Shown here one piece after another: positions 3,280 to 38,146 of a stretch of DNA of 64,000 bases. The stretch lies in the NCBI GenBank assembly GCA_964483405.1, contig CAZABC010000002.1:108355-172354 (forward strand). Reading direction: 5' to 3'. Under the pieces are notes generated by a model. That model ran no database searches, was not told the DNA's origin, and was given only the letters and a program-made list of their open reading frames with translations. The position numbers and the translations under genes are program-made. This DNA comes from an uncultured Anaerolineaceae bacterium. GTDB lineage: Bacteria; Chloroflexota; Limnocylindria; Limnocylindrales; CSP1-4. The first letter of the stretch is position 1, and the number at the start of each line of letters is the position of its first letter.

Positions 3280-3379
3280 GGTGGGTCCTCGGATCGACGG
3301 GGCGGGACGCTCCGGCATGGGTAGCACACGGCCGCGGCCCGCGCCAGCGGGGTGCGAGGACCGCGACGGATCCCGAGAC

Positions 3380-9354: not shown

Positions 9355-12081
9355 GTGGGCGGCCCGGCCGTGGCCGGCGGGCTGCCCACCGGCACGATCA
9401 CCTTCGTCTTCACCGACATCGAAGGCTCGACCCGCCTCGGGCAGCGGCTCGGCCCGGATCGCTACGGCGAGGTCCTCGAGCGCCAGCGAACGGCCCTCCG
9501 GGCCGTCTGGGCGGCCCACGGCGGCGTCGAGGTCGGGACCGAGGGCGACTCGTTCTTCGTCGCCTTCCCGAGCGCCGCCGAGGCCGTCGCCGCGGTCGCC
9601 GACGGGCAGCGGGCGCTGGCGGCGACGGACTGGCCGCACGACGAGCCGGTCCGCGTCCGGATGGGGGCCCACACCGGCGAGGGCCGCCTCGCCGCCGGCA
9701 CGTACGTCGGTCATGACGTCAACCGGGCCGCCCGGGTCGCCGCGGCCGGCCATGGCGGCCAGGTCCTGCTGAGCGAGACGACCCGGGCCCTCGTCGCCGA
9801 CGCGCCACCGCCGGGGACGGCCATCCGCTCGCTCGGCGAGCATCGCCTCAAGGATCTCCGGCCGGAGACGATCTTCCAGCTCGACGTCGAGGGCCTGCCG
9901 GTCGAGTTCCCGCCGCTCCGCTCGCTCGACGCGCGCCCCAACAACCTGCCGACGCTGCTCACCTCGTTCGTCGGCCGCGAGCACGAGCTCGTCGAGACGG
10001 AGCGGTATCTCGAGACGACCCGGCTGCTGACCCTGACCGGGCCGGGCGGCACGGGCAAGACCCGGCTCTCGCTCCAGGTCGCCGCGCGGGTCGGCGACCG
10101 GTTCCCCGACGGGACCTGGTTCGTGGCGCTCGAGCCGATCCGCGACCCGGCCCTCGTCGCGCCGACGATCGCCCGCGCGATGGGGCTCGCCGACAGCGGC
10201 GCCAGGCCGGCGGTCGACGTCGTCGCCGATGCCGTCGGCGAGCAGCGGGTGCTGCTCGTGCTCGACAACTTCGAGCAGGTCCTCGACGCCGCGCCGGTCG
10301 TCGCCGCGCTGCTCGGGCGGTGTCCGTCGCTCCGGGTCGTCGCGACGAGCCGGGCGGCGCTGCACGTCGCCGGCGAGCAGGAGTACCCGGTCCCCGGCCT
10401 GCCCGCGCCGCCGGACGCGAGCCACCTATCGCCGCTCGAGCGCGAGAACCTCCCGGCCGACGTCCTCCGGCCCGGACCGGCGGCGCTGTCGCAGTACGAG
10501 GCCGTCCGGCTCTTCATCGCCCGGGCGGGGGCCGTCCGGCCCGGGTTCGCCGTGACGAACGAGAATGCGCCCGCCGTCGCGGCGATCTGCGCCCGGCTCC
10601 ACGGCATGCCGCTCGCGATCGAGCTCGCGGCGGCCCGGGTCAAGCTCCTCGGTCCGGACCAGATCCTCGCCCGGCTCGAGCAGCAGCTCGGGACGCCGTC
10701 GGGGGCCGCCCGGGACGTCCCCGACCGCCAGCGCACCCTCCGTGGGGCGATCGCCTGGAGCTACGACCTGCTCGACGAGCCCGTCCGGCGCCTCCTCGAC
10801 CGGCTCTCCGTCTTCAGCGGCGGGTGGGACCTCGACGCCGCCGAGGCCGTCTGCGGCCCGGGCCCCGAGCTCGACGTCGAGGTCATCGACGGCCTCGCCG
10901 TGCTCGTCGACCAGAGCCTGGTGCGGGCCGACACCGAGGCCACCGACCCACGCTTCGACCTCTTCCCGACGATCCGCGAGTTCGCCGCCGAGATGCTCGC
11001 CGGGCGCGGCGAGGCGGCGGTCATCGCCGCGGCCCACACCGCCCACTTCCTGGCGGTCGCCGAGACCGCCGCACCGCACCTCTCGGGCGCCGACCAGCGC
11101 CGCTGGCTCGACGCGCTCGAGCGCGATCACGACAACCTGCGGGCCGCCCTGGAGCGGGCGACCGCCGCGCCGGACCCGGAGTCGGCGGTCCGGATCGCCT
11201 TCGCGCTGTGGCGGTTCTGGCAGCAGCGCGGCTACCTCAACGAGGCGCGCGCACGCCTCGCGACCCTCGCCGCGCAGGATTGGGCGCTCGCGCCCGAGCT
11301 CCGGGCGCGCCTCGCCGAGGCCGCCGGCGGGGTCGCCTACTGGCAGGCCGATCATGCCGAGACGATCCGCTGGTACGACGAGGCGCTCGCCATCCGCCGC
11401 GAGCTCGGCGACCCGCGCGAGCTCGCCAACGCCATGTACAACCGGGCCTACGCGGCGATCCTGCCGGTGACGGACGAGGCGGAGCGCCGGCGCAACTTCG
11501 AGGCCTCGCGGGCGATGGCCGAGGAGGCGCTGGCGATCTATCGCGAGCTCGGCGACGAGGCCGGCGAGGGTAACCTGCTGTGGGCCCTCGGCAGCCTCGC
11601 CTACTTCGACAACGACCCGGCCGGGGCCGAGCGGTGGTACCGCGAGGCGCTCGAGACGTTCCGGGCGGCCGGCCACCGGACGATGGAGGCCTGGGCGCTC
11701 CACATGGTCGCGACGACCGACCTCAAGCTCGGCCGGGTGGACGACGCCCTCGCTGCGGGGCGGCACGCCCTGCGCCACTTCCGCGACGCCGGTGACCTGT
11801 CCGGGCTGACGCTCGTCCTCGACGACCTGTCGGCGACGGCGGTCGCGATGGGCGACCACGATCGAGCCGGCCGGCTGCGCGGGGCCGCCCGCCGGCTCCA
11901 GGCGACGACGGGCACCGAGCTCGCCGGCTGGGTGGACGCGTACTTCGAGGAGGAGACCCGGCCGAGCGCGGCGCGGACGCTCTCGGCGGCCGATCTCGAG
12001 CGGACGATGGCCGCCGGCGCGGCGATGAGCCTCGACGACGCGGTCGCCTACGCGCTCGGCGAGCGCGACGCGCTACCATGA
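9355..12081 (+). CDS. Class III adenylate/guanylate cyclase fused to STAND (NB-ARC-like) NTPase and TPR repeats
   Basis: FTDIEGST...EGDSFF...VNRAAR cyclase motifs; LTSFVGRE; Walker A GPGGTGKT; Walker B LLVLDNFEQ; GMPLAIELAAAR; helical C-terminus without a LuxR HTH. Confidence 0.92.
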   Translation: MGGPAVAGGLPTGTITFVFTDIEGSTRLGQRLGPDRYGEVLERQRTALRAVWAAHGGVEVGTEGDSFFVAFPSAAEAVAAVADGQRALAATDWPHDEPVRVRMGAHTGEGRLAAGTYVGHDVNRAARVAAAGHGGQVLLSETTRALVADAPPPGTAIRSLGEHRLKDLRPETIFQLDVEGLPVEFPPLRSLDARPNNLPTLLTSFVGREHELVETERYLETTRLLTLTGPGGTGKTRLSLQVAARVGDRFPDGTWFVALEPIRDPALVAPTIARAMGLADSGARPAVDVVADAVGEQRVLLVLDNFEQVLDAAPVVAALLGRCPSLRVVATSRAALHVAGEQEYPVPGLPAPPDASHLSPLERENLPADVLRPGPAALSQYEAVRLFIARAGAVRPGFAVTNENAPAVAAICARLHGMPLAIELAAARVKLLGPDQILARLEQQLGTPSGAARDVPDRQRTLRGAIAWSYDLLDEPVRRLLDRLSVFSGGWDLDAAEAVCGPGPELDVEVIDGLAVLVDQSLVRADTEATDPRFDLFPTIREFAAEMLAGRGEAAVIAAAHTAHFLAVAETAAPHLSGADQRRWLDALERDHDNLRAALERATAAPDPESAVRIAFALWRFWQQRGYLNEARARLATLAAQDWALAPELRARLAEAAGGVAYWQADHAETIRWYDEALAIRRELGDPRELANAMYNRAYAAILPVTDEAERRRNFEASRAMAEEALAIYRELGDEAGEGNLLWALGSLAYFDNDPAGAERWYREALETFRAAGHRTMEAWALHMVATTDLKLGRVDDALAAGRHALRHFRDAGDLSGLTLVLDDLSATAVAMGDHDRAGRLRGAARRLQATTGTELAGWVDAYFEEETRPSAARTLSAADLERTMAAGAAMSLDDAVAYALGERDALP

Positions 12082-25925: not shown

Positions 25926-27344
25926 TCAGGCATCGACGAGCCGATCGGGATCGGCCGGCGCCGCGCCGCTGTAGGCGGCTTCGGTGGCATGCGGCAGGGC
26001 CACGCCGTGGGCCCGGGCCTCGAGCGCCGCATGGAGCGAGTCGGCGAAGATCGAGACGACCCGGTCGACGGTGTCGCCGCCGGCGTGCGCCTCGCAGACG
26101 AACCACGGCTCGCGCGAGTCGGGCTCCGGCATCGCGCCGCGGGCGTGCATGCCGACCGCGATCGCGTCGTAGAGCTCGTGATCGGTCGTCGCCCAGTCGC
26201 GGTACTCGGTCGCGACCTCCTCGCGGAACATGATCCCGAACATCGACGGGTGGCCGGTGAAGTGATAGGCGAGACCGGTCGGGTCGAGGACCGCCTTGAG
26301 CCCGGCCTGGATCGACTCGCCGGTGCGCCGGATCGTGTCGAGGGCCGACGTGTCGCGGATGATCTCGAGGGTCCGCACGGCGGCCGCCGCCGCGATCCGG
26401 TTGCCGGCGTAGGTCCCGCCGTGGGAGACCTTGTCGGGCAGGACGCTCATCACCTCGGCCGTCCCGCCGAACGCGGCGGCCGGGTAGCCGTTGCCCATCG
26501 CCTTGGCGTAGGTCGCGAGGTCGGGCGTGATGCCGAAGAACTCGGCCGCGCCGCCGCGGGCGAACCGGAAGCCCGTCTTGACCTCGTCGAAGATGAGGAG
26601 GATCCCGAACTCGCGCGTCAGGGCCCGCATCGCCTGGTGGAAGCCCGGCTGCGGCATGATCCCCTGAGCATTGCCGAGGACCGGCTCGACGATGATCGCG
26701 GCGATCTCGTGGCCCCGCTCCTCGAAGAGCCGCCGGAGGCGCTCGATGTTGTTGTAGCGGGCCGGGATGATGGTGTCGGCCACCGGCCCCGGGATGCCGC
26801 GGCCCCAGGTGAGCCGGACGGGGTTCTCCGCATCGCCGAGCTCGCCCATGTCGTTCGGCGCGACCGAGATGAGGGCGTAGTCGTGGACGCCGTGGTACTG
26901 GCCCTCGAACTTCACGATCTTGTCGCGGCCGGTGTATGCCCGGGCGACGCGCATCGCGTGCATCGTCGCCTCGGTGCCCGACACCGTCATCCGGGCGCGC
27001 TCGACCCAGCCGGTCAGCTCGCAGACGAGCTCCATCGCCCGGACCTCGTCCTCCGACGTCAGCGAGAAGCTGACGCCGCGTCGCATCCGCTCGTTGACGT
27101 GGTCGTCGACGCGATCGTCAGCGTGGCCGAGGATGACCGGGCCATAGCCCATCCGGAGGTCGATGTACTCGTTGCCGTCGAGGTCCCAGACCATCCCGCC
27201 CTTGCCGCGGTCGATGTAGACCGTGTCCTCGCCCCAGGCGCGGAAGTTCGAGTCGGTGCCGCCCGGCAACGTGCCGAGCGCCCGGCGGTACATCGCCAGC
27301 TGCACGTCTCGCCGGAGTCGGGGGGTGGCAGGCTCGGTGGCCAT
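25926..27344 (-). CDS. Class III PLP aminotransferase, glutamate-1-semialdehyde aminomutase-like (substrate uncertain)
   Basis: DLDGNEYIDLRMGYGPVILGH, VSGTEATM, FEGQYHG, FDEVKTGFR, PLP lysine in TYAKAMGNGYP, HGGTYAGN. Confidence 0.85.
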   Translation of the reverse strand: MATEPATPRLRRDVQLAMYRRALGTLPGGTDSNFRAWGEDTVYIDRGKGGMVWDLDGNEYIDLRMGYGPVILGHADDRVDDHVNERMRRGVSFSLTSEDEVRAMELVCELTGWVERARMTVSGTEATMHAMRVARAYTGRDKIVKFEGQYHGVHDYALISVAPNDMGELGDAENPVRLTWGRGIPGPVADTIIPARYNNIERLRRLFEERGHEIAAIIVEPVLGNAQGIMPQPGFHQAMRALTREFGILLIFDEVKTGFRFARGGAAEFFGITPDLATYAKAMGNGYPAAAFGGTAEVMSVLPDKVSHGGTYAGNRIAAAAAVRTLEIIRDTSALDTIRRTGESIQAGLKAVLDPTGLAYHFTGHPSMFGIMFREEVATEYRDWATTDHELYDAIAVGMHARGAMPEPDSREPWFVCEAHAGGDTVDRVVSIFADSLHAALEARAHGVALPHATEAAYSGAAPADPDRLVDA

Positions 27345-27420
27345 GGGGCTCCTCTCGGCCGTCGGTCGACGGGCGCGCGCGACGGGACTTCGTCGTCGCT
27401 GTCGCGCCTGTGCGAACGGC

Positions 27421-27481
27421 CGTTGCGCATGGTGGAACGACCGATGCGCCGATGCTGCCACAGCGCCGGAGCGGGCGTCAA
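27421..27481 (-). promoter_or_regulatory. Putative promoter and IclR-type operator of the aminotransferase-IclR operon
   Basis: TTGACG (27481-27476), 18 nt, TG-n-CAGCAT (27457-27452). Imperfect palindrome CGTTGCGCATGGTGGAACG at 27421-27439 just downstream of the predicted start site. Confidence 0.4.
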
Positions 27482-27567
27482 CACGCCCCCGGCGGCTCGA
27501 CGCGGGCGGGCGCCCGGCAGCCGCCCGCTGCAGCCGACGGCGCGAGGCCCGACACTTGTCGGCGCCC

Positions 27568-27906
27568 ATGCTCCCGCCGTACGCCTACCTCCTGGCGATC
27601 CTCGTCTCGTTCGCCGGCATGGTCGTCATCGACCGTCGCTGGCGGCTCGGTGTCGTCGGCCGCCGCCTGGTCGTCTCGATCGTCGCCGTCGAGGTCGCCT
27701 TCCTCCTCGTCTTCGACGCCCTCGGGTCGGCCCGCGGCTGGTTCGCGACGAACCCCGACCTCGTGGTCGGCCTCGGGCCGCTCGGCATCCCGCCCGAGGA
27801 GCCGCTCCTCCTCGCCTTCCTGGCGACGTTCGCGGTCGTCGTCGACCGGATCGCCGGCCGGCTGACCGGCGAGGATCCTGCGCCCGACGGGGGCTCGGAC
27901 GGCTGA
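27568..27906 (+). CDS. Heterodimeric lycopene/C50 carotenoid cyclase subunit (CrtYc/Ye-like)
   Basis: YAYLLAILVSFAGMVVIDRRW...FDALG...GIPPEE; 112 aa, hydrophobic. Confidence 0.8.
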   Translation: MLPPYAYLLAILVSFAGMVVIDRRWRLGVVGRRLVVSIVAVEVAFLLVFDALGSARGWFATNPDLVVGLGPLGIPPEEPLLLAFLATFAVVVDRIAGRLTGEDPAPDGGSDG

Positions 27907-28202
27907 TGCCCGAGTACACGCTCGCCTCGATCGTCGCCCTCGGCCTGGCCGCCGTCGGCGCGCTGGTGGCGGGCCTGCACCGCCGGCGGGCGACCTGGCT
28001 GACATTGGCGGTCTTCGGCGCCTTCACCGTCGTCTTCGACATCGTCCTGACCGGCCTGCCGATCGTGACGTACGGCGACGGGACGACGACCGGCATCGCG
28101 ATCGGGCCGATGCCGGTCGAGGACCTCCTCTACGGCTGGGCCCTCTGCCTCACCGCGCTCGTCGCCTGGGCCGTCGCCGGACGGCGCCGCGCGACCCGCT
28201 GA
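27906..28202 (+). CDS. Heterodimeric lycopene/C50 carotenoid cyclase subunit (CrtYd/Yf-like)
   Basis: YTLAS...TVVFDIVLT...GPMPVEDLLY; TGATG overlap with the upstream gene. Confidence 0.8.
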   Translation: MPEYTLASIVALGLAAVGALVAGLHRRRATWLTLAVFGAFTVVFDIVLTGLPIVTYGDGTTTGIAIGPMPVEDLLYGWALCLTALVAWAVAGRRRATR

Positions 28203-28206
28203 CCCG

Positions 28207-30240
28207 GTGACCCGCCTGCGCGAGCTCCTCTTGGCGAGCCGGCCGCTGTCGTGGATCAACACCGGCCTGCCGTTCCTCGCGGCCGCGTACGAGGTCGACC
28301 GGGCGCTCACCCCGCTCGGGCTGCTCGGGTTCGCCTACTTCCTCGTGCCGTTCAACCTGCTGATGTACGGCGTCAACGACATCTTCGACTACGCCTCGGA
28401 CCTGGCGAACCCCCGCAAGCGCTCGCTCGAGGGCGGGATCGTCCCGCCGGATCGCCGCCGGGCCACGTGGGCTGCGATCGCCGCGACGAACCTGCCGTTC
28501 CTCGCCCTCCTCGGCTGGCTCGCGCCACCGGCCGGCTTTGCCGCCGTCCTCCTCGCCGCCTTCGCGGCGCTCGCCTACTCCGCGCCGCCGCTGCGGACGA
28601 AGGTCCGGCCATTCCTCGACTCGCTGACGAGCGCGTCGCACTTCGTCCTGCCGGCCGTCGCGGGGTTCCTCGTCGCCGGCCTCGACCCGGCGGCGCTGCC
28701 GTGGGCGCTGATCGTCGGCTTCACCGCGTGGGGCGTCGCGAGCCACGCCCTCGGGGCGATCCAGGACATCGCCTACGACCGGGCCGCGGGCATCGGCTCG
28801 ATCGCCACGGCGATCGGGGCGCGGCCGACGGCCCTGCTCGCCCTCGCCGGCTACGGCATCGCGATCGGAGCCGCCCTCTCGTACGGGGGCCTCGCTGCGG
28901 TCGCCGGTCTCGCCCTCGCGACGTACCTCCTCCTGCCGTTCGCCGTCCTCTGCCGGCCCGACGAGCCACAGGCGCGCCGCGCCTGGCGCTCGTTCCTCGG
29001 GCTCAACCTGCTCGTCGGCTTCGTGCTGACCCAGCTCCTGCTGCGGCACTGGGGGCTGGTGACGCTGCCGCTCGGGGCCGCACTCGGAGCCGCCGCGGTC
29101 GCAGCCGCCGGGACGAGCCTCGTCCAGCTCCTCGCGACGGTCGTCCTCCTCCGCCGATCACGCGCGTCGGCGCTGGCCGGCGCGGGGACCGCTGCCCTGC
29201 CCCGCCTCAGCGTCGTCGTCCCATGCCGGGACGAGGCCGTCCGGCTGCCGGCCGTCATCGCCGCGCTCGCCGCGCAGGACCACCCCGACCTAGAGATCGT
29301 CGTCATCGACGACGGCTCGACCGACGGGACGGCCGATATCGCCCGACGCGAGCTCGCGGCCCGGCGGCCCACGGGTGGCGATCGCGACCGGGTCGTCGTC
29401 GCGCCGCCGATGCCCGCCGGCTGGACCGGCAAGAGCTGGGCGTGCGACGTGGGCGCTCGCACGGCGATCGGCGGGCATGTCCTCTTCCTCGACGCCGACA
29501 CGCTCCCTGCGCCGAGTGCGCTCCGGACGCTCCACGCGATCGCCCGCGGCTCGCGGGCGGCCCTCGTCTCGGGCGTGAGCGCGTACGCGATGCCGACGAC
29601 GACCGAGCGGGCGCTCGTGCCGGGCTTCCCGCTCGTCATGTACGGGCTCGTGCCGGTCTGGGCGGCCATCCTCGGGCGGGGTCGGAGCGGCTACCGATTC
29701 GCCTACGGCCCGCTCCTGCTCGTCGAGGCCGCCGCGTACCGCGCGGCCGGTGGGCACGCCGCGGCGCCCGCCTCGGCGCGCGAGGACCTCGACCTCGCCG
29801 CGACGATCGGCCGGGCCGGCGGCGAGGTCCGGCTCGTCGCCGCGGCCGACCTAGCGGCGACCCGCCACTACCCCGATGGGACCGGGGCGCTCGCCGCCTG
29901 GCGACGGGTCGCGGTGGCGTACGGCGGCGACTCGTTCGCCACGATCCTCGCCCTGCTCGCTGTCGAGGCGCTCGCCTGGCTGCTGCCGCTCGTCGCCCCG
30001 CTCGCCGGCGCGGCCCTCGGGGACCCGGACCTGCTCGGCGCCGGCCTCGTCGCGCTCGGGGCGCTCGTCGCCTTCCGGGTCGGCCTGGCCGTCGCGGAGC
30101 GGCAGCCGCTCGCCGCGATCGTCTGGCACCCGATCACCGTCGGTGCGACGATGGCGGCCCAGGCCGCCAGCCTCGTCGACGCCGTCCTCGGTCGTCCGGC
30201 GATCTGGCATGGGCGCTCGCTCGAACGGAAGGCACCATGA
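28207..30240 (+). CDS. Fusion: lycopene elongase-like prenyltransferase (CrtEb/LyeJ, UbiA family) plus family 2 carotenoid glycosyltransferase (CrtQ/CruC-like)
   Basis: N-terminal half: SRPLSWINT, NLLMYGVNDIFDYASD, YSAPPLRTK, AIQDI. C-terminal half: SVVVPCRDE, DDGSTDGT, GWTGKSWAC, FLDADT, EDLDL. One continuous 677-aa ORF. Confidence 0.85.
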   Translation: MTRLRELLLASRPLSWINTGLPFLAAAYEVDRALTPLGLLGFAYFLVPFNLLMYGVNDIFDYASDLANPRKRSLEGGIVPPDRRRATWAAIAATNLPFLALLGWLAPPAGFAAVLLAAFAALAYSAPPLRTKVRPFLDSLTSASHFVLPAVAGFLVAGLDPAALPWALIVGFTAWGVASHALGAIQDIAYDRAAGIGSIATAIGARPTALLALAGYGIAIGAALSYGGLAAVAGLALATYLLLPFAVLCRPDEPQARRAWRSFLGLNLLVGFVLTQLLLRHWGLVTLPLGAALGAAAVAAAGTSLVQLLATVVLLRRSRASALAGAGTAALPRLSVVVPCRDEAVRLPAVIAALAAQDHPDLEIVVIDDGSTDGTADIARRELAARRPTGGDRDRVVVAPPMPAGWTGKSWACDVGARTAIGGHVLFLDADTLPAPSALRTLHAIARGSRAALVSGVSAYAMPTTTERALVPGFPLVMYGLVPVWAAILGRGRSGYRFAYGPLLLVEAAAYRAAGGHAAAPASAREDLDLAATIGRAGGEVRLVAAADLAATRHYPDGTGALAAWRRVAVAYGGDSFATILALLAVEALAWLLPLVAPLAGAALGDPDLLGAGLVALGALVAFRVGLAVAERQPLAAIVWHPITVGATMAAQAASLVDAVLGRPAIWHGRSLERKAP

Positions 30241-31799
30241 GCACGACCGCCGCACCCACCACCACCACTACCACCGACCCGGCCGGCCGCCGGCCGTCGG
30301 CGAGCGCGTCGCGCCCGCGGGCCGTCGTCGTCGGCTCGGGGATCGGCGGCCTCGCCGTCGCCATCCGCCTCCTCGCCGACGGTCACGACGTGACCGTCCT
30401 CGAGGCCCGCGCCACGGTCGGCGGCCGGGCGTCGCGGATCCGCGACGCCGGCTTCACCTGGGACACCGGCCCCTCGCTCATCACGATGCCGTGGCTCTTC
30501 GACGAGCTCTTCGCCCTCGGCGGCAGCCGCTTCCGCGACGAGGTGGTCCTGCACGAGCTCATGCCCGGCTACCGGATCCACTGGACCGACGTGGACGGTC
30601 GCGTCCAGCCCCGACACGTCGACTTCTCGAGCGACGTCGACATCCTCCGGTCGGAGGTGGCGAAGTTCTCGACGGTCGACGCGGGCCGGCTCGACGACTT
30701 CCTCGCGGCGAGCAAGCGGATCCACGAGGAGGGTGTCCTCGTCGCCGGCCGGAAGCCGTTCCTCCGGCTGACCGACTTCGTCGGCCTCGTCCCCCGGATG
30801 GTCGGGATGAACGCGATCCGGAGTCTCGACGCGTTCGTCGGGAGCTACTTCAAGGACCCCCGGGTCCGCCAGGTCTTCGACTTCCACTCGCTCTTCATCG
30901 GCGGCGACCCGCGGCGGGTCCCGGGGATCTACGCGGCGCTCGTCTACCTCCAGGTCGCCGACGGCATCTGGTACTCCGAGGGCGGTGTCTACAGCGTCAT
31001 CGAGGCGATGGCCCGGATCATCGAGCGGGGCGGCGGCCGGATCGTGACCGGGGCGCCGGTCGAGCGGATCGTCCATCGCGGCGGGCGGGCCGTCGCCGTC
31101 CGGACCGCGTCCGGCGACGAGATCCCGGCCGACGTCGTCGTGAGCAACACCGATGTGACGGCCCGGCCGCACCTCCTGCCCGACGCGCCCGAGCCGCTGC
31201 CGTGGCGGGCCCGCCGCTTCCGGACGACGATGAGCGCCTTCCTGCTCTACCTCGGGACGAGCCGGCGGTTCCCGCAGCTCCTCCACCACACGCTCATCGT
31301 CGGGTCCGACTACCACGGCTTCATCCGCCAGGTCACCCGCGAGCGGCGGCTCCCCGAGTCCCTCAGCTTCTACATCCACGCCCCCGCCAGGACCGAGCCC
31401 GGGATGGCGATCCCCGGCGGCGACGCGCTGACCGTCCTCCTGCCGGTCCCGAACCTCGACGCGGACGTCGACTGGGACGAGGCGGGCCCGGCCCTCCGCG
31501 ACCGCGTCGTCGACGCGCTCGAGACCTTCGGGATGGCGGGTCTCCGCGACTCGATCGTCGCCGAGCACGCCTGGACGCCGCGCACGTTCCGCGACGAGCT
31601 CGGTGCGCCCGACGGCAACGCCTTCGCGATCGAGCCGGCGCTCCACCAGTCGGCGTACTTCCGCCAGCCGAACCGGGACCGCGCGGTCGCGGGGCTGTAC
31701 TGGGTCGGTGGTGGGACGCACCCGGGCGCGGGGATGCCGGGGACGCTGATGACGGCCGAGGTGACGGCCGGCCTCGTCCGCGCGGCCGCCGGTCGCTGA
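30237..31799 (+). CDS. crtI: Phytoene desaturase
   Basis: VVGSGIGGLA, GFTWDTGPS, MSAFLLYLG, YWVGGGTHPGAGMPG. The real start is the ATG at 30237, not the track's 28251. Confidence 0.93.
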   Translation: MSTTAAPTTTTTTDPAGRRPSASASRPRAVVVGSGIGGLAVAIRLLADGHDVTVLEARATVGGRASRIRDAGFTWDTGPSLITMPWLFDELFALGGSRFRDEVVLHELMPGYRIHWTDVDGRVQPRHVDFSSDVDILRSEVAKFSTVDAGRLDDFLAASKRIHEEGVLVAGRKPFLRLTDFVGLVPRMVGMNAIRSLDAFVGSYFKDPRVRQVFDFHSLFIGGDPRRVPGIYAALVYLQVADGIWYSEGGVYSVIEAMARIIERGGGRIVTGAPVERIVHRGGRAVAVRTASGDEIPADVVVSNTDVTARPHLLPDAPEPLPWRARRFRTTMSAFLLYLGTSRRFPQLLHHTLIVGSDYHGFIRQVTRERRLPESLSFYIHAPARTEPGMAIPGGDALTVLLPVPNLDADVDWDEAGPALRDRVVDALETFGMAGLRDSIVAEHAWTPRTFRDELGAPDGNAFAIEPALHQSAYFRQPNRDRAVAGLYWVGGGTHPGAGMPGTLMTAEVTAGLVRAAAGR

Positions 31800-31806
31800 G
31801 GCGCGG

Positions 31807-32703
31807 ATGGCGGCGGACCCGGCGCGCCCGTCGTCGAGGGACCCCGCGGTCGAGGCGCTGCTGCCGGAGGCCCGGCGGACGATCGAGCGGGTCGCCCGGA
31901 CGTTCGCCATCGCCGCCCGGCTCCTGCCACGATCGGTCCGCGAGGACGTCGACCTCCTGTACCTCGTCCTCCGCGGCCTCGACGACCTCGTCGATCTCGA
32001 GGCCGAGCGGCCCAACGACCCGGCCGCCGCGGCGCGGCTCGCCGCGGTCGAGGCGTGGGCGGCCGGAGCGCCGCTCCCCGACGGCCCGACGCGCGAGACG
32101 AGGGTCCTCGCCGAGCTCGCCCGGCGACACCCCGCGCTGCCGCGCGACGCGGTGGCCGACTTCACGGCCGGGATGCGCCAGGACCTCGCCGGGACGGTCA
32201 TCGAGACCGAGGCGGACCTCGACACGTACGCCTACCGGGTCGCCGGGACGGTCGGCCGGCTGATGGCGGCGATCCTCGGGGCCGAAGGGCCCGAGGCCGA
32301 CGCCGCCGCCCGCGCGCTCGGGATCGCGATGCAGCGGACGAACATCCTCCGTGACGTCGACGAGGACCTTGCCCGGGGTCGCTGCTACCTGCCGACCGAG
32401 ACGCTGCGGGCCCACGGGATCACCTCGCCAGACGAGCTCCGGACCGCCGACCGGCGGACCCTCCTGCGCGACGGGATCGCCAGGGCCGACGCCGCGTACG
32501 ACGCGGGGCTGCGGGGCATCGTCCATCTCCGCCACGGCCGTCGCTCGATCGCCGCGGCCGGTCGGATGTACCGCGAGATCCTCCGCCAGATCGAGCGGGA
32601 CGGGCTCGGTGCCCGGCGCCCGCACCGCGCCGCCGTCGCCCGCTGGCGCAAGGTCGCGCTCATCCTCGGGGCGATGGTCGCCCCCACCGCGGGCGACCGA
32701 TGA
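31807..32703 (+). CDS. crtB: Phytoene synthase
   Basis: TFAIAARLLP, LDDLVD, YAYRVAGTVG, LGIAMQRTNILRDVDED, GRCYLP. Confidence 0.93.
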   Translation: MAADPARPSSRDPAVEALLPEARRTIERVARTFAIAARLLPRSVREDVDLLYLVLRGLDDLVDLEAERPNDPAAAARLAAVEAWAAGAPLPDGPTRETRVLAELARRHPALPRDAVADFTAGMRQDLAGTVIETEADLDTYAYRVAGTVGRLMAAILGAEGPEADAAARALGIAMQRTNILRDVDEDLARGRCYLPTETLRAHGITSPDELRTADRRTLLRDGIARADAAYDAGLRGIVHLRHGRRSIAAAGRMYREILRQIERDGLGARRPHRAAVARWRKVALILGAMVAPTAGDR

Positions 32704-33338
32704 TCCCCGACCCGGCGAGCGCCGGGGTCCCCGACATCGGTCTCCCGGCGACCATCGCCCTGCTCGCCATCGGCTGGCTCGTCGGATCGTTCCCGAGCGC
32801 GATCGTCGTCGGGCGGGCCCGCGGGTTCGACGTCACCAGGGACGGCGACGGCAACCCCGGCTCGGCGAACGTCTGGAAGCTCGCCGGGCCAGCCGCCGGG
32901 ACGACGGTCTTCCTGCTCGACATCGCCAAGGTGGTCCTGCCTGGGCTGGCCGGCTGGGTCGTCGCCGGATGGTGGGGCGCCTGGGCCGGCGCGATCGGGG
33001 CGGTCCTCGGGGCGATGCGACCGGCGTGGCCGGCCTGGCCGGGCGGGCGGGGCGTCAACGCCGGCGCGGGCGCCGCGATCGTCCTCGCTCCGACGGCCGC
33101 GGCGCTCGGCGTCGTCGCGTTCGCGGCGACGTACCTGGTCGCCCGGAGCCGAGTGGCGGCCGTCAGCGCCGGCTTCGTCGCCTACCCGATCGCGCTCGTC
33201 GCGCTGACCGTCCGCGAGCCCGACGACATGTGGCCGATCGCCGGGATCGGCGTGCTCTACCTGCTCCTCGTCGCCCGCTACGTCGCGACCGACCGCGCCC
33301 GCCGCGGCCGACCCGGGGGTGCGCCGCCCGGGCCCTGA
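32700..33338 (+). CDS. PlsY (DUF205)-like membrane acyltransferase, atypical active site, encoded in the carotenoid operon
   Basis: GSFPSA, GDGNPGSAN, DIAK, GGRGV; ATGA overlap with crtB. Confidence 0.75.
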   Translation: MIPDPASAGVPDIGLPATIALLAIGWLVGSFPSAIVVGRARGFDVTRDGDGNPGSANVWKLAGPAAGTTVFLLDIAKVVLPGLAGWVVAGWWGAWAGAIGAVLGAMRPAWPAWPGGRGVNAGAGAAIVLAPTAAALGVVAFAATYLVARSRVAAVSAGFVAYPIALVALTVREPDDMWPIAGIGVLYLLLVARYVATDRARRGRPGGAPPGP

Positions 33339-33341
33339 CGC

Positions 33342-35018
33342 TCAGGCCGGGGTCCGGACCCAGCGCGGCAGCTCGCGGGCGAGCGTCGCGAGCGGCAGCG
33401 AACCGTGCCCGAGCACCTCGTCGTGGAAGCTCCGCAGGTCGAAGGCGGCTCCATCGCGCTCGGCGATCTCGCGCCGGAGCCGCTCGATCTCGAGCTGCCC
33501 GAGGCGGTAGCTGAGCGCCTGGCCCGGCCAGGTCAGGTAGCGGTCGGTCTCGATGAGCGCGTCCGTCTCGGTCAGCCCGACCGAGAGGAGGAAGTCGATC
33601 GACTGCTGGCGCGTCCAGCGCAGGGCGTGCATCCCCGTGTCGACGACGAGTCGCGCCGCCCGCCAGGCCTGGGCGGTCAGCATCCCGAACCGCTCCTGGT
33701 CGTTGCGGAACAGCCCGAGCTCGTCGGCGAGCCGCTCGGAGTAGAGGCCCCAGCCCTCGACGTAGGCGCCGCCCGCCGCTCGCGAGCCGAGCCGGCGGAA
33801 CGTCGAGAGCTCGTCGTTCTCGGTCTCGAGCGCGATCTGGAAGTGGTGGCCGGGGACCGCCTCGTGATAGGTCGTGGTCGCGAGCGTCGAGAACATCCGC
33901 GAGGGCAGGTCGTAGGTGTTCGCGTAGTAGATCCCCGCCCGACTGCCGTCGGGGGCCGGCGGGAAGTAGTAGGCGAAGGGGCTGTCCTTCTCCTTGAAAG
34001 CCTCGACGGCCCGGACCTCGCAGCCTGACCGGGGCAGCCGGCCGAAGATCCTGGGCGCGACCTCCATCGCTCGCTGAATGTCCTCGCGGGCGCGCTGGAG
34101 GAGTGCCTCCGCCGTCGCCGCGTGGTTCGCCGGATCGGCGACCAGCGTCTCGCGGTAGGCCATGATGTCGTCGCCGAAGCCGGCCGCGCGGCTGATCGCG
34201 CGCTGCTCCTCCTGGATCGAGGCCACGCCGTCGAGACCGATCCGGTGGACCTCCGCCGGGTCGATGTCGAGCGTCGTCCAGACGAGGGCCTGGGTCCGGT
34301 AGAGCGCATCGCCGTCCGGGGCGGACCACAGGCCCGGCTCCTCGCGGCTCGCCGGGAGATAGGCCCGGACCGCCTCGAGGAAGGCGGCGTCGGCCGGGTA
34401 GACGACGTCCCGGACCGCGTCGCGGATCCGCCCGCGATCCGCCTCGGATGCGCCGGTGACCGCGGCCGGGATGACCGCCGCCTCGATCGGGATCGCGAGG
34501 AGTCGCTCGAGCTGGGCGACCGTCCGCTCGGCGGTGATCCGGGGCACGGTCAGCCCGCGCGCGGCGCCCTCGCGGACCAGCTCGGCGTTCGCCGCCATGT
34601 AGGGCCCGTACGCGTGGATCCGGGCGAGCAGCCGCTCGACGCGCTCGGGGGTGTCGGCCTTCTGGAAGACGGCGATCTGGGCGAGGACCGTCTGGGGCCC
34701 GGCCATGTGGTCGACGACGCGAAGCAGGTCCACCCGCTGGTCGTCCTGCTCGATCGCGAGCTCGCAGATGACCCGGAGGATGTCGCGCGTGATCCGGTCC
34801 TCGAGGTCGAGCCCCTCCTCGGGGATCGCCATCGCCTCGGCGAGGGTCGACACGGCGAGGGCCCGGGCGGCGGCCCGGCCGACCTCCGAAGGGTCCTCCA
34901 GCCGGTCGTCGTAGCGCTCGTCGCCGTACACCGTCGCGGTCGTCGGGTTGAGCGCGAGCGTCGCCTCCCAGAACCGGTCGGCGAGCTGGTTGACGGGCGT
35001 GGTCGGGTCGAACGGCAC
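33342..35018 (-). CDS. DUF885 family protein (metallopeptidase-like)
   Basis: YHEAVPGHHFQ, YVEGWGLYSE, RAARLVVDTGMH, EIDRY-like ETDRY, PGQALSY. Confidence 0.9.
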   Translation of the reverse strand: MPFDPTTPVNQLADRFWEATLALNPTTATVYGDERYDDRLEDPSEVGRAAARALAVSTLAEAMAIPEEGLDLEDRITRDILRVICELAIEQDDQRVDLLRVVDHMAGPQTVLAQIAVFQKADTPERVERLLARIHAYGPYMAANAELVREGAARGLTVPRITAERTVAQLERLLAIPIEAAVIPAAVTGASEADRGRIRDAVRDVVYPADAAFLEAVRAYLPASREEPGLWSAPDGDALYRTQALVWTTLDIDPAEVHRIGLDGVASIQEEQRAISRAAGFGDDIMAYRETLVADPANHAATAEALLQRAREDIQRAMEVAPRIFGRLPRSGCEVRAVEAFKEKDSPFAYYFPPAPDGSRAGIYYANTYDLPSRMFSTLATTTYHEAVPGHHFQIALETENDELSTFRRLGSRAAGGAYVEGWGLYSERLADELGLFRNDQERFGMLTAQAWRAARLVVDTGMHALRWTRQQSIDFLLSVGLTETDALIETDRYLTWPGQALSYRLGQLEIERLRREIAERDGAAFDLRSFHDEVLGHGSLPLATLARELPRWVRTPA

Positions 35019-35118
35019 GGTCGGATCTCCGGATCGGGGGTCGGCGCGGGTCGGCGGCGGTCGCAGGGACGGGACGACGTCGAGGTCAGGATAGCCTCTC
35101 GGGCCGACCGGACGGTCG

Positions 35119-38043
35119 TCAGCCGCCGAACATCGGCAGCTGTTCGCCGCCCCGCTCGACGATCGGGTCGAGCCCGAGGAAGGGCTCGAGGCCGTCGAGC
35201 ATCGGCGCTTCCGCGCCGGCGAAGGTCCGGAGGTGGCTCCACTTGAGGAGATGCCAGTTGTCATCGACGAGCGCCGCGCGCAGGAGCGGCGACCGCTCGA
35301 GCTTGTGCCGGATCAGCTCGGTCCGCTCGGGCGCGACGACGAGGAAGCGGACGGTGCCGTCGTCGCCGGGGATCCGGGCGTGGCGGCGGAGGATCGGCTC
35401 GGCGAGCATCGCCGTCCAGAGGACCTCGAGGTAGATCGTCGCTCGGCCCCGGACGTACCAGATCGCGTCGACGTCGGCCAGCGCGTCGGCCGGCGCGCGG
35501 GCGACGAGCGGCAGGTGGACGCTCCGCTCGCGGGCCTCGAGGTGGTCGGCGAGGCGGTGACCGGCGACCGGCCGGTCGAGCTCGCGCTCGGCGATCGCGA
35601 CCCGGAAGCCCATCCGGTGCCCGAGGTCGGCGAGCAGCGCGAGGATCGCGGTCCGCTCGGCCGTCCGGCGCAGGAGGTCGTCGCCGGTGACGAGCCCGTC
35701 GGGCGTCGAGGCGAGGCCACGGTAGCTCTCGAGGCAGGCCCGGACGAGACCCTCGTCGGGGAGATCGTGGCCCGGGAACAGCCCGGCGATCCGCTCGGCG
35801 AAGGCCGCCTCGGAGAGCGGCCCAGCGGTCGACAGGAGCGAGAAGACCGCCCACTCCACGCGATCGGACAGCGGGACGGCGGCCGCCTCCCGGTCCGTCG
35901 GGTCGGCCAGCCACCAGCGGCCCGGCTCGATCTCGACGATCCGGCGCTGCGTCGGCCGGGCAAGCTCGGCGCCGATGAGGTCGATGAGGCGCTCGACGTT
36001 GCCGGCCGCGACGACCTCCTCGCGCGGCCGGCGGTCCCACAGCCCGGGCATCGTCGCGATCGACGCGCCCGGCTCTGCCGATCCCGGCGCGTCAGGAGTC
36101 TCCGGTCCCGGCGCGTCCGTCGAAGCGGGCACATCCGGCGACGCCGCGGCGCGGGGCGACCGGGCGCGGGGATCGCCCGACCGGGGCGATGGCCTCGGCT
36201 CGGGGCCGGAGGGCGACCCGGCAGCGGCGCGACCCGCGTCGTCGGGTGCGGCTCCGGGCGTGGGGGCCACGGGCGTGGGGGCATCGGCCGTCGCCCCGTC
36301 GTCGGACGCGCCGTCGGACGCGCCGCCCGCGACGAGCCGGCGAAGATGGCCAGCGCGGTCCAGCCCGACGAGGATCTCGCCGAGGAGCCGCTCGGTCCGG
36401 GCCGGCTCGCCGCGGGCCTTGAGCACTTCGACCGCCGACTCGGTGATCGTCCGGGCGGCCTCGGCTGCCGCGAACGGCCGCGCCTCGAACCGCTCAGCCG
36501 GTGCGAACAGCGAGCCGCTCGGGATCGACTCCGGATCCCCGCGGCCGCCCGGGACCGGCGGGAGCGACACGTTCGCCCGGGTCCGGGGACCGGGCGGCAG
36601 GGCAGCACCCGGCGGGACGAGCTCGACGGTCGCGACCGTCTCGCCGGACTCCGCGAGCCGCGCCCCGGTGACCCGGAAGCCCGCGCCGACCGCCCCGAGG
36701 ACCGCGGCGATGATCGGCTCGGGACCGCTCGGGTCGCACAGGAAGACGACGCGGCCGTCACGGGTCAGCATCGGCTCGACCGACCCGAGCGCGCGGCCGA
36801 TGGCGGCGGACTGCCAGCCCCACGGGACGCGGAACGGCCCGGCGGTCAGCGCGTCGAGCGGCAGGAGCGCGGCGGCCTCCCGGCCGAGGACCCAGGCGGT
36901 CCCGAGGTAGGCGAAGGCGAGCCGTTCCGCCGTCGGCCGGACCGGTGGCTGGGCGAGGACCAGCCGGACCCCGGCGCCAGGGCGGGCTCGGGCGGCGTCG
37001 CGGGCCTCGGCGGCGAGCGAGCGCTGCGCCGACGCGGTCCCGATCCGCATGGAGACCGTCGCCGTGCCGTCGACGAGCGATCGGAGGTCCATCCCGACCC
37101 GGGCCTGCAGCTGGCTGCCCGGACCACCCTCGAGCCGCTGGAGGAAGGCTCGGACGGCCCGGTAGCCGTCCTCGAACGCGAGCCACGGGTTCCGCTCCCG
37201 CCAGGCGCCCGACGGCAGGCGGACCCGGCCGCCGACGATGCGGAGCTGGGCGGTCCGGCCGGGGGCGACGAGCAGCCGACCCGAGGGCAGGATCGCGTGG
37301 AGGAGGGCGAGCCGCAGGGCGGCCTGCACGTTCGCCGCACGGAGGTCCCCTTCGAGTCGCTCGAGGATCGCTGCCAGCCCGAGCAGCTGCCGCGGCGTGT
37401 GGAGGTCGAGCAGCTCGTCGACGAGACCGGGTGCGGCGTCGGGCACCGGGAAGCGATCGGCGACGGCCCGGCGCATCGACTCGAAGTCCTCGCCCGTGTC
37501 GTCGGCCGCCCGCGCGAGGTCGGCGTCGTCGAGCGGGGCGTGACGGTCCTCGCTGCCGCCGCGCTGGGCGCGGCACGCCGAGCAGCGGTAATGCCGGGTC
37601 GTCGGCCGGACGACACCGTCCGGTCCGGGGCTCCAGCCGATCTCGTCGATCACGAGCGGGCGCTCGCAGGTCGCGCAGCGCGTCGCGAACCGGTCGCAGA
37701 TCCAGAGCTTGAGGCTCGTCTCGCGGCGCGGGGCGCCGGCCAGCGACTGGAACGCCGCGTCGAGGTGGCGGAGGTCGGGCGGCCGCAGGACGACCTCGGC
37801 GAGCAGCCGGTCGAGCGGGCTCGATTCGAGGGTGATCGCCCGCCGTTGCCGATCGACGGCGGCCCGGGCGATCCAGCCGCCGCGGCCATGGAGGTCGAGG
37901 ACGACGTCGCCGGGGGCCGAGAGCGCCTCGAGCCGGGCGACGACGACCGCCGGCGGGGGCGGCGGACTGAGCCGCTCGAACGCGGGCAGGGCGAGGCCCG
38001 GCTCGTCCCGGGCGAGGAGGGCGCGGCCGACCATCGCCCCCAT
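35119..38043 (-). CDS. Large DNA-methyltransferase-fold protein with Zn ribbon, winged-helix region and C-terminal restriction-endonuclease-like domain; catalytic motifs degenerate
   Basis: VVLDLHGRGG (motif I-like), CATC...CSAC, LVLAQPP (DPPY-like position), C-terminal DVDAIWY...LEVLW. Start is 38043 or 38034. Confidence 0.6.
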   Translation of the reverse strand: MGAMVGRALLARDEPGLALPAFERLSPPPPPAVVVARLEALSAPGDVVLDLHGRGGWIARAAVDRQRRAITLESSPLDRLLAEVVLRPPDLRHLDAAFQSLAGAPRRETSLKLWICDRFATRCATCERPLVIDEIGWSPGPDGVVRPTTRHYRCSACRAQRGGSEDRHAPLDDADLARAADDTGEDFESMRRAVADRFPVPDAAPGLVDELLDLHTPRQLLGLAAILERLEGDLRAANVQAALRLALLHAILPSGRLLVAPGRTAQLRIVGGRVRLPSGAWRERNPWLAFEDGYRAVRAFLQRLEGGPGSQLQARVGMDLRSLVDGTATVSMRIGTASAQRSLAAEARDAARARPGAGVRLVLAQPPVRPTAERLAFAYLGTAWVLGREAAALLPLDALTAGPFRVPWGWQSAAIGRALGSVEPMLTRDGRVVFLCDPSGPEPIIAAVLGAVGAGFRVTGARLAESGETVATVELVPPGAALPPGPRTRANVSLPPVPGGRGDPESIPSGSLFAPAERFEARPFAAAEAARTITESAVEVLKARGEPARTERLLGEILVGLDRAGHLRRLVAGGASDGASDDGATADAPTPVAPTPGAAPDDAGRAAAGSPSGPEPRPSPRSGDPRARSPRAAASPDVPASTDAPGPETPDAPGSAEPGASIATMPGLWDRRPREEVVAAGNVERLIDLIGAELARPTQRRIVEIEPGRWWLADPTDREAAAVPLSDRVEWAVFSLLSTAGPLSEAAFAERIAGLFPGHDLPDEGLVRACLESYRGLASTPDGLVTGDDLLRRTAERTAILALLADLGHRMGFRVAIAERELDRPVAGHRLADHLEARERSVHLPLVARAPADALADVDAIWYVRGRATIYLEVLWTAMLAEPILRRHARIPGDDGTVRFLVVAPERTELIRHKLERSPLLRAALVDDNWHLLKWSHLRTFAGAEAPMLDGLEPFLGLDPIVERGGEQLPMFGG

Positions 38044-38146
38044 CGTGCCACAGGGCGGCCGGCCCGACACCGGGGCGGCGAGTACCATCGCCACGGTCGG
38101 CGCTCCCGGGCCGGACGCGCCGCGCAGGTACGACGGAGGTACGAAG

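Follow-up and report, generated by a model that had tools for sequence, protein, structure and literature searches.

To our knowledge, pathways to cyclic C50 carotenoids have been characterised only in Actinomycetota, and those to acyclic C50 carotenoids only in haloarchaea and a few actinobacteria. Carotenoid glycoside esters arise through modules of a family 2 glycosyltransferase (GT2) and an acyltransferase, namely CruC/CruD in green sulfur bacteria, Salinibacter and Thermus, and CrtQ/CrtO in Staphylococcus; the staphylococcal CrtO belongs to a family other than the lysophospholipid-type acyltransferases (LPLAT, or PlsC-type). The decaprenoxanthin cluster of Corynebacterium glutamicum reads crtE-cg0722(mmpL)-crtB-crtI-crtYe-crtYf-crtEb, with a regulator gene, crtR, and with the glycosyltransferase gene crtX located elsewhere (PMC5401885). 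The C.p.450 genes of Dietzia sp. CQ4, lbtA and lbtBC (LitAB/LitBC in Klassen, 2010), join the second cyclase subunit to the elongase (PMC2889829). Here we describe an operon of six genes (g1 to g6) in a 64,000-nucleotide stretch of contig CAZABC010000002.1 (assembly GCA_964483405.1), hereafter the window, from an uncultured bacterium of the Chloroflexota (Limnocylindria; Limnocylindrales). It encodes two small cyclase subunits, a UbiA-family prenyltransferase fused to a GT2, a CrtI-family desaturase, CrtB and a PlsY-like membrane protein. Judged from its sequence, the operon appears to be a variant of the known cyclic C50 pathway, new in its phylogenetic setting, in the elongase-glycosyltransferase fusion and in a PlsY-derived candidate acyltransferase.

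The operon has in common with the clusters of C. glutamicum, Glutamicibacter, Cellulomonas and Isoptericola the genes crtB and crtI, the cyclase pair, the UbiA-family elongase and the order crtYe-crtYf-crtEb, at 30-34% identity in the cyclase subunits and 46-49% in the elongase. It differs from them in having a membrane GT2 joined to the elongase, in placing the cyclase and elongase genes ahead of crtI and crtB (cyclases-elongase-crtI-crtB, against crtB-crtI-cyclases-elongase), in an added PlsY paralogue and in the lack of crtE and idi within the window; the hosts are Chloroflexota and Dormibacterota instead of Actinomycetota. The Dietzia fusion lacks a glycosyltransferase domain, and subunit B of the window is a separate gene. 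In literature searches, no paper came up that describes an elongase fused to a glycosyltransferase, genes for C50 carotenoids in Chloroflexota, Limnocylindria or Dormibacterota, or a PlsY-derived candidate acyltransferase of carotenoids.

The product of the operon is probably an elongated (C45/C50) cyclic carotenoid glycoside. The pathway would be membrane-bound and would start from geranylgeranyl diphosphate (GGPP), from which CrtB (g5) would form phytoene and CrtI (g4) would then form lycopene. The UbiA half of g3 would add a C5 unit to C-2, and probably to C-2′ as well, leaving a hydroxyl; the g1/g2 heterodimer would cyclise the elongated ends; and the GT2 half, on the same polypeptide as the elongase, would glycosylate the hydroxyl. 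The likeliest role for g6 would be acylation of the sugar, in place of an LPLAT-type (CruD/CrtO-like) acyltransferase. All of these chemical steps are predictions, including chain length, ring type, the sugar and its acylation. If they hold, C50 chemistry would reach two large phyla of soil and freshwater, most of whose members are uncultured, and the pathway would be the first to C50 carotenoids known to us beyond Actinomycetota and haloarchaea. Acylated cyclic C50 glycosides would then be made through a single elongase-glycosyltransferase (cyclase-elongase-glycosyltransferase in some lineages) in uncultured Limnocylindria-type Chloroflexota and in Dormibacterota. The fusion would serve as a ‘Rosetta stone’ that physically ties the long-sought glycosylation step to the elongation step, and a natural one-polypeptide elongase-glycosyltransferase would be handy for engineering glycosylated C50 pigments.

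Operon structure, putative elongase and cyclase pair

At a G+C content of about 75%, raw lists of open reading frames (ORFs) from the window consist mostly of spurious frames, and a filter on third-position GC was applied. The resulting frame plot resolves six consecutive coding segments on the forward strand from 27568 to 33338, with a third-position GC of 0.89-1.00. Separate gene calls on L001, a Logan metagenome contig identical to the window across the crt cluster, yield the six products listed in Table 1. Both sources agree with the initial annotation, which had described six tightly coupled genes here from the letters of the DNA. Adjacent genes either overlap, by 1 nt between g1 and g2 (TGATG) and by 4 nt at both g3/g4 and g5/g6, or are separated by 4 nt (g2/g3) or 7 nt (g4/g5).

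The third gene carries a UbiA domain (PF01040, 78 bits, aa 24-264) followed by a Glycos_transf_2 domain (PF00535, 71 bits, aa 335 to ~600). The UbiA half passes the cut-off of the NCBIfam equivalog NF009608 with 289 bits (cut-off 217), a model on which the proteins in the crtEb position of Glutamicibacter and Isoptericola reach 433 and 462 bits, while models of the chlorophyll synthase/BchG, UbiA and MenA types give about 42 bits at most. Its identity of 46-49% refers to the crtEb-position proteins of Glutamicibacter, Isoptericola and Cellulomonas. The aspartate-rich motifs N57-D58-x2-D61-x3-D65 and D187-x3-D191 are invariant or almost so among 22 homologues, and the predicted structure has about nine transmembrane (TM) helices in this half. 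The reference clusters (L002-L005, and L017 from Ilumatobacter) were obtained by a scan of a genome collection with the fusion alignment, in which generic GT2 matches dominate and no fused homologue among the matches listed carries an organism name. That of Glutamicibacter bergerei (L002) has the order MarR(crtR)-crtE-crtB-crtI-crtYe-crtYf-crtEb-idi, the gene set also reported for C. glutamicum (PMC5401885). Assignment of the UbiA half as a CrtEb-type lycopene elongase is supported by these comparisons, with C5 addition at C-2/C-2′ as the predicted reaction.

The two small genes upstream of the fusion were compared with the actinobacterial cyclases as profiles. Profiles of the g1 and g2 types, built from seven related loci, were aligned by hhalign with the pair of small proteins whose genes immediately precede crtEb in four clusters from Micrococcales. 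The g1 profile matched the CrtYe position with 98.2% probability (E 4e-14) and the CrtYf position with 12.9%, whereas the g2 profile matched the CrtYf position with 97.4% probability (E 1.3e-11) and the CrtYe position with 30.6%; all cross pairs stayed below 37%. Because these matches are reciprocal and fall in the same order, the crtYe-crtYf-crtEb block, the signature of cyclic C50 pathways, is both homologous and collinear in the window operon. Family models agree to different degrees: g2 exceeds the cut-offs of PF18916 Lycopene_cyc (42 bits; cut-off 27) and TIGR03462 (48.7 bits; cut-off 39) and carries a PMPVED motif, while g1, whose only family match is TIGR03462 at 31 bits, under that cut-off, has one CarR-type lycopene-cyclase domain with an IPPEEP motif and is 31-34% identical to the Cellulomonas, Isoptericola and Glutamicibacter proteins. 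Two claims of the initial annotation, an elongase and two small cyclase subunits of the C50 heterodimer type, are supported by these results, the first by the NF009608 score and by the company of crtI, crtB and the small cyclase pair, the second by specific CrtYe and CrtYf counterparts in conserved order. A grouping of the UbiA domain with non-carotenoid prenyltransferases, which that annotation had raised as a counter-argument, was looked for and not found (289 against ~42 bits).

The only CrtI-family gene of the operon, g4, scores 485 bits on TIGR02734 crtI_fam (cut-off 238) and just 48 bits on HpnE. The g5 product scores 194 bits on PF00494 SQS_PSY (cut-off 26), and its best NCBIfam match is HpnD, under the cut-off. 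CrtB proteins taken from the canonical crt clusters of Glutamicibacter and Ilumatobacter likewise match HpnD best and below the cut-off, so that this match is uninformative for g5.

The core of the operon (cyclase pair, fusion, crtI and crtB) recurs in L082, L084-L087 and L103-L107. The elongase gene has crtI, crtB and the genes of a small cyclase pair as neighbours in the window and in eleven related loci, and the fusion lies between the cyclase pair and crtI in 12 of 12 loci (the eleven and L001). In some soil metagenomes (P0100, P0105, P0108, P0111, P0114 and P0116), cyclase subunit B is itself joined to the fusion, giving triple proteins of 735-742 aa; Dietzia LbtBC is a precedent for those of P0100, P0108 and P0114. 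The C50 assignment of the cyclase pair is based on its linkage to the elongase and is strengthened by these fusions of subunit B with the elongase. The rings that g1 and g2 would form may be of the epsilon, gamma or beta type.

The glycosyltransferase domain and the PlsY-fold protein

Joined UbiA and GT2 domains occur in more than 100 protein clusters. Among 184 homologues that were scored, the 120 listed are 43-68% identical to g3 and nearly all have 660-750 aa and both domains; those with names belong to metagenome-assembled genomes (MAGs) labelled Chloroflexi/Chloroflexota bacterium, Candidatus Limnocylindrales or Dormibacterota. An AlphaFold model of the 677-residue g3 protein is a single confident unit (predicted local distance difference test, pLDDT, 91.1; predicted template modelling score, pTM, 0.87). 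It has about nine UbiA helices, then a long helix as linker (aa 289-325), and after it the GT-A domain (aa 334-552) with three helices at the C-terminus, so that the GT-A domain has one helix ahead of it and three behind. The UbiA fold comprises nine TM helices with an N-in topology. In the model, the linker would act as a tenth helix that brings the chain back to the cytoplasm and, together with the N-in topology, would place the two active sites on one side of the membrane.

The GT2 half contains a DDGSTDG motif and a DAD motif (D429-A430-D431), of which D429 and D431 are invariant and A430 nearly so in the same 22 homologues, and Foldseek places it closest to membrane GT2s (6yv7, BcsA and hyaluronan synthase). 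Its best plasmid-borne relatives were found in Microvirga ossetica (39.5% identity), Azospirillum brasilense Sp7 (36.2%) and Deinococcus deserti (34.8%). Each of the three lies inside a carotenoid cluster, between genes of the crtI and crtB families, and adjoins a gene for an LPLAT acyltransferase. Their records are annotated generically, and we take these GT2-acyltransferase modules to be of the CruC/CruD or CrtQ/CrtO type. The window differs from them in that its GT2 is fused to the elongase and its sole acyltransferase candidate has the PlsY fold. As for the clusters themselves, those of M. ossetica (L108) and A. brasilense Sp7 (L110, plasmid p3) contain two CrtI-family genes, an aldehyde dehydrogenase gene, the LPLAT gene and the GT2 gene; in Microvirga, ispH and a gene for a 552-aa protein of the SQS_PSY family are also present. 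Both clusters resemble C30-type pathways to glycosyl esters.

The last gene of the operon, g6, matches PF02660 G3P_acyltransf with 91 bits and the PlsY equivalog TIGR00023 with 67.5 bits, under its cut-off of 137.2. Its predicted structure (pLDDT 87.5) superposes on Aquifex aeolicus PlsY (5XJ7/5XJ5) with template modelling scores of 0.72-0.79 at 23% identity, and Foldseek gave no other significant fold match. In Aquifex PlsY (PDB 5XJ5-5XJ9), glycerol 3-phosphate (G3P) is held by S35, R45, K104 and N180 as a phosphate clamp and by S142 and H177 at the 2-hydroxyl, and the acyl phosphate by the side chains of T41 and H92 together with the backbone amides of residues 104-107, the ‘phosphate hole’ (PMC5700162). 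The fold and the glycine motifs are common to both proteins, whereas the G3P ligands are replaced or missing in g6: S35 is aspartate, R45 lysine, K104 arginine and S142 valine, and N180 and H177 are missing. The same loss is seen in every crt-linked PlsY-like copy (S35 to D/E, K104 to R, no serine at 142, no C-terminal HxxN with H177 and N180), while N37, N42 and the glycine-rich loops (G-x-G-N-x-G-x-x-N and GG(K/R)G, GGRG in the window) are retained. On this evidence the protein is no G3P acyltransferase, since an acidic residue at position 35 would repel the phosphate. A housekeeping PlsY was considered for g6 and rejected on the pocket residues and the sub-threshold TIGR00023 score; g6 is also set apart from Aquifex PlsY by being encoded in a carotenoid operon.

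Linkage of the PlsY-like gene to the operon is conserved in most relatives. It is the last gene in 8 of 10 assessable loci (the window, L082, L086, L087, L103/L104, L105 and L106), spanning five flanking contexts and two gene orders; in L106, where crtB stands first in the operon, the PlsY-like gene comes after crtI and is still last. A metagenome scan with the PlsY-like alignment found four close relatives on short contigs, three of which show the arrangement crtI-crtB-PlsY-like; the sequence of L093 is truncated. What had been called a PlsY-like gene can now be described as an operon-linked paralogue with the PlsY fold.

A second, independent association between a PlsY paralogue and a carotenoid GT2, without an elongase, is found in an Ilumatobacter sp. 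MAG (L017, Acidimicrobiia), where a divergent PlsY-like gene adjoins a gene for a CruG-like GT2 (242 bits) in a carotenoid cluster. This copy has D35, W41, E45 and R104 and no HxxN, and keeps the serine at 142. Its cluster (L017, 2034-10827) comprises crtE-crtI-crtB, a second CrtI-family gene (a 696-aa ORF), the CruG-like GT2 gene, the convergent PlsY-like gene and a gene for a CrtZ-like hydroxylase.

Pfam scans found no LPLAT acyltransferase in the window. Because homologous GT2s are paired with an LPLAT enzyme and the window has none, acylation of the glycoside by g6, as a non-orthologous replacement, appears the most economical reading of the gene; we would put it at somewhat below an even chance. 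A broader proposal is more tentative still: that this paralogue subfamily forms an unrecognised class of carotenoid-glycoside acyltransferases, in which the acyl-phosphate donor site is kept, a sugar pocket takes the place of the G3P pocket, and LPLAT-type CruD/CrtO enzymes are replaced, so that acylated cyclic C50 glycosides would occur in Chloroflexota and Dormibacterota. The PlsY fold would then be a scaffold open to retargeting, from making phospholipids to tailoring pigments.

Points against the proposed pathway and alternative products

Several observations weigh against the pathway as proposed. The absence of crtE and idi from the window, which the initial annotation had pointed out, was confirmed: tblastn gave no match in the window to a GGPP synthase, a type-1 isopentenyl diphosphate isomerase (IDI) or a type-2 IDI-like enzyme, and Pfam scans of the remaining window ORFs gave no polyprenyl synthase, so that GGPP and the C5 donor would have to come from genes elsewhere in the genome. 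The best NCBIfam matches of the GT2 half, HpnB (135 bits; cut-off 379) and CruG (80 bits; cut-off 600), both stay under their curated cut-offs; the NCBIfam library contains neither a CruC nor a CrtQ model. The annotation of a CrtQ/CruC-type glycosyltransferase is backed by the cluster context of the three plasmid-borne homologues and by no curated model. The short GT2 encoded beside crtEb in Isoptericola is of a subtype unlike the GT2 half of g3, and the fusion is therefore not simply an actinobacterial crtEb joined to crtX. For the cyclases, the references compared were the proteins in the CrtYe and CrtYf positions. Concerning g6, both T41 and H92 are alanine in the window, L082 and L086, and L087 has A41 and S92; L084 and L107 have the core cluster and no PlsY-like gene; and a PlsY-like paralogue of 38% identity with a large insertion, P0146 (Joint Genome Institute, JGI, 3300041967), has no crt genes upstream and nothing listed downstream.

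The points on g6 bear on the strongest alternative, in which the pathway to the glycoside is the same and g6 does not acylate it, serving instead in pigment binding, export or membrane insertion, or acylates a carotenoid hydroxyl directly, or is catalytically dead in this lineage. We regard this as a serious possibility, short of being probable. The residues lost in the window, L082, L086 and L087 are the only ones whose side chains bind the acyl phosphate in Aquifex PlsY, two lineages do without the gene, and P0146 is found apart from upstream crt genes. The P0146 gene follows genes for a CN_hydrolase (nitrilase), a Bac_luciferase and a MOSC protein, the first two of which are also neighbours of the crt cluster in L082; either loss or insertion of the crt genes may have taken place at the P0146 locus. 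Yet the glycine-rich loops and N37/N42 are kept in crt-linked copies whose fold is confidently that of PlsY, T41 and H92 are both retained in the more divergent crt-linked copies of L105 and L106 (and H92 in L103), and homologous GT2s elsewhere consistently come with an acyltransferase, of which there is no other here. Pfam found no alternative acyltransferase among the unannotated neighbours in the relatives that lack the PlsY-like gene.

A second alternative keeps the glycoside and changes the ring chemistry: g1 and g2 would be C40 enzymes like CrtYc/CrtYd that form one gamma-carotene-type ring, with the elongase/hydratase acting on the open end to give a monocyclic C45 carotenoid glycosylated at its tertiary 1′-hydroxyl. 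Such a product would correspond, in elongated form, to the hydroxy-gamma-carotene glucoside esters of Chloroflexus, and the resemblance of the GT2 half to CruG/HpnB-type enzymes of terpenoid alcohols would suit it. The C40 CrtYc/Yd and C50 CrtYe/Yf enzymes are homologous and share one architecture (PMC2889829). A profile search with subunit B and actinobacterial CrtYf gave 1904 matches, of which the 120 listed are the query's own families and offer no discriminating phylogeny. We nevertheless consider a monocyclic C45 product unlikely, as g1 and g2 specifically match the pair of subunits whose genes immediately precede crtEb in the four Micrococcales clusters, with the order kept, and the fusion of a cyclase subunit to the elongase in some relatives argues that the cyclase acts on the elongase product. 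Named relatives of g2 among the matches listed are mostly Micrococcales, which points the same way and is partly circular, the search profile having contained Micrococcales sequences. Scores alone do not separate g4 and g5 from C30 CrtN/CrtM, a reading that is likewise unlikely because the cyclases would be expected to need psi-end groups.

Much less probable is an acyclic C50 glycoside of the bacterioruberin type, as in haloarchaea, Rubrobacter and Arthrobacter agilis, with the ‘cyclase’ subunits in some other role. The haloarchaeal pathway (LyeJ, CruF and CrtD) shares with the predicted one the UbiA-family addition of C5 units to the ends of lycopene, and the UbiA half of g3 does score 140-159 bits on NF009516 and NF010119, both of them prenyltransferase equivalogs. 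NF009608 scores about twice as high as either of these, the same ratio as for the actinobacterial crtEb-position proteins. Unlike the haloarchaeal pathway, moreover, the operon and the related loci lack both a CruF-type hydratase (PF04240) and CrtD, which would be a second desaturase of the CrtI family, and the conserved cyclase-domain pair is always present.

The view that g5 and the GT2 half belong to hopanoid or squalene synthesis (HpnD/HpnB) was rejected on the calibration with canonical CrtB proteins, on g4 being of the CrtI and not the HpnE type, and on the GT2 homologues in carotenoid clusters. A non-carotenoid lipid as the substrate of the UbiA-GT2 fusion, be it a precursor of quinones, a polyprenyl-phosphate sugar or a compound related to hopanoids, with its place among crt genes incidental, deserves hardly any credence. 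In favour of this reading, most homologues are auto-annotated by JGI as ‘4-hydroxybenzoate polyprenyltransferase’ and the sub-threshold NCBIfam matches are headed by HpnB for the GT2 half and by HpnD for g5. Against it, the UbiA/MenA/BchG-type models stay far below NF009608, bona fide CrtB proteins also have HpnD as top match, shc, hpnC and hpnE are absent, and the fusion keeps its place between the cyclase pair and crtI throughout, fused to a cyclase in some cases.

Related loci, flanking regions and feature positions

Several of the related loci carry additional genes. L105 adds crtE and a type-2 IDI-like FMN_dh gene, and L084 and L107 have the IDI-like gene alone; a divergent MarR gene is present in L085, L105 and L106, and MMPL genes together with MerR and B12-binding (CarH/LitR-like) genes are found in L103-L105. 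The divergent MarR, MMPL, crtE and IDI genes echo crtR and mmpL of C. glutamicum and the actinobacterial set, and the added genes suggest that pigment synthesis may be regulated by light. In the Limnocylindrales MAG of L084, the match to crtI (10160-11625) is split over two frames that overlap, and no gene was called there, which may reflect an assembly frameshift or a pseudogene.

Both flanks of the operon in the window lie on the opposite strand and are unrelated to carotenoid genes (Table 1); further upstream are a gene for an IclR regulator, two genes from the operon, and one for an MscS-like channel. In the intergenic region ahead of g1, a block of about 60 nt (27422-27482; GTTGC...GGAACG...CATGCTGCCACA...GTCAAC) is conserved upstream in L086 and L087, and a perfect palindrome, CGACA-CT-TGTCG (27549-27560), lies 8 nt ahead of the g1 start codon. 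Both are possible promoter or operator elements. Consensus scans found no sigma-70 promoter and no intrinsic terminator, as expected at 75% GC, and no obvious Shine-Dalgarno sequence precedes g1. The sequencing runs that contain the sequence are all DNA metagenomes, from freshwater, groundwater and sediment.

Table 1. Positions of the operon genes, their flanks and related features (window coordinates unless a locus is named)
Feature	Position	Strand	Description
g1	27568-27906	+	Cyclase subunit A, 112 aa; counterpart of actinobacterial CrtYe
g2	27906-28202	+	Cyclase subunit B, 98 aa; counterpart of actinobacterial CrtYf
g3	28207-30240	+	UbiA-GT2 fusion, 677 aa
g3, N-terminal half (aa 1-283)	28207-29055	+	Putative CrtEb-type UbiA prenyltransferase
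g3, linker helix (aa 289-325)	29071-29181	+	From the predicted structure
g3, C-terminal half (aa 327-677)	29185-30240	+	Membrane-anchored GT2, GT-A fold
g4	30237-31799	+	CrtI-family phytoene desaturase, 520 aa
g5	31807-32703	+	Phytoene synthase CrtB, 298 aa
g6	32700-33338	+	PlsY-fold membrane protein, 212 aa
Class-III aminotransferase ORF	25926-27569	-	Upstream flank; likely ATG start at 27345
Aminotransferase/g1 intergenic region	27346-27567	.	Divergent; from sequence reading and alignment with L086 and L087
DUF885 gene	33342-35264	-	Downstream flank
Triple fusions (cyclase B-UbiA-GT2)	L103 4826-7054; L104 3290-5518		Subunit A stays a separate 105-aa gene just upstream
MerR and B12-binding genes	L103 9893-11232; L104 8357-9696; L105 15212-15998		Directly downstream in L103 and L104, ~3.3 kb downstream in L105

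Two further features of the window lie outside the operon. ARAGORN reports an 89-nt tRNA-Gly(ACC) at 2544-2632 on the reverse strand, within the gene for the alpha subunit of a Rieske ring-hydroxylating oxygenase (2065-3327), which is probably a false positive. Also on the reverse strand, 35119-38094 encodes a protein of about 990 aa without a Pfam match (the longest ORF, extending to 38493, would give 1124 aa). Its neighbours are genes for a MoxR-type AAA ATPase and a DUF58 protein, an arrangement that is kept in L086 and L087.

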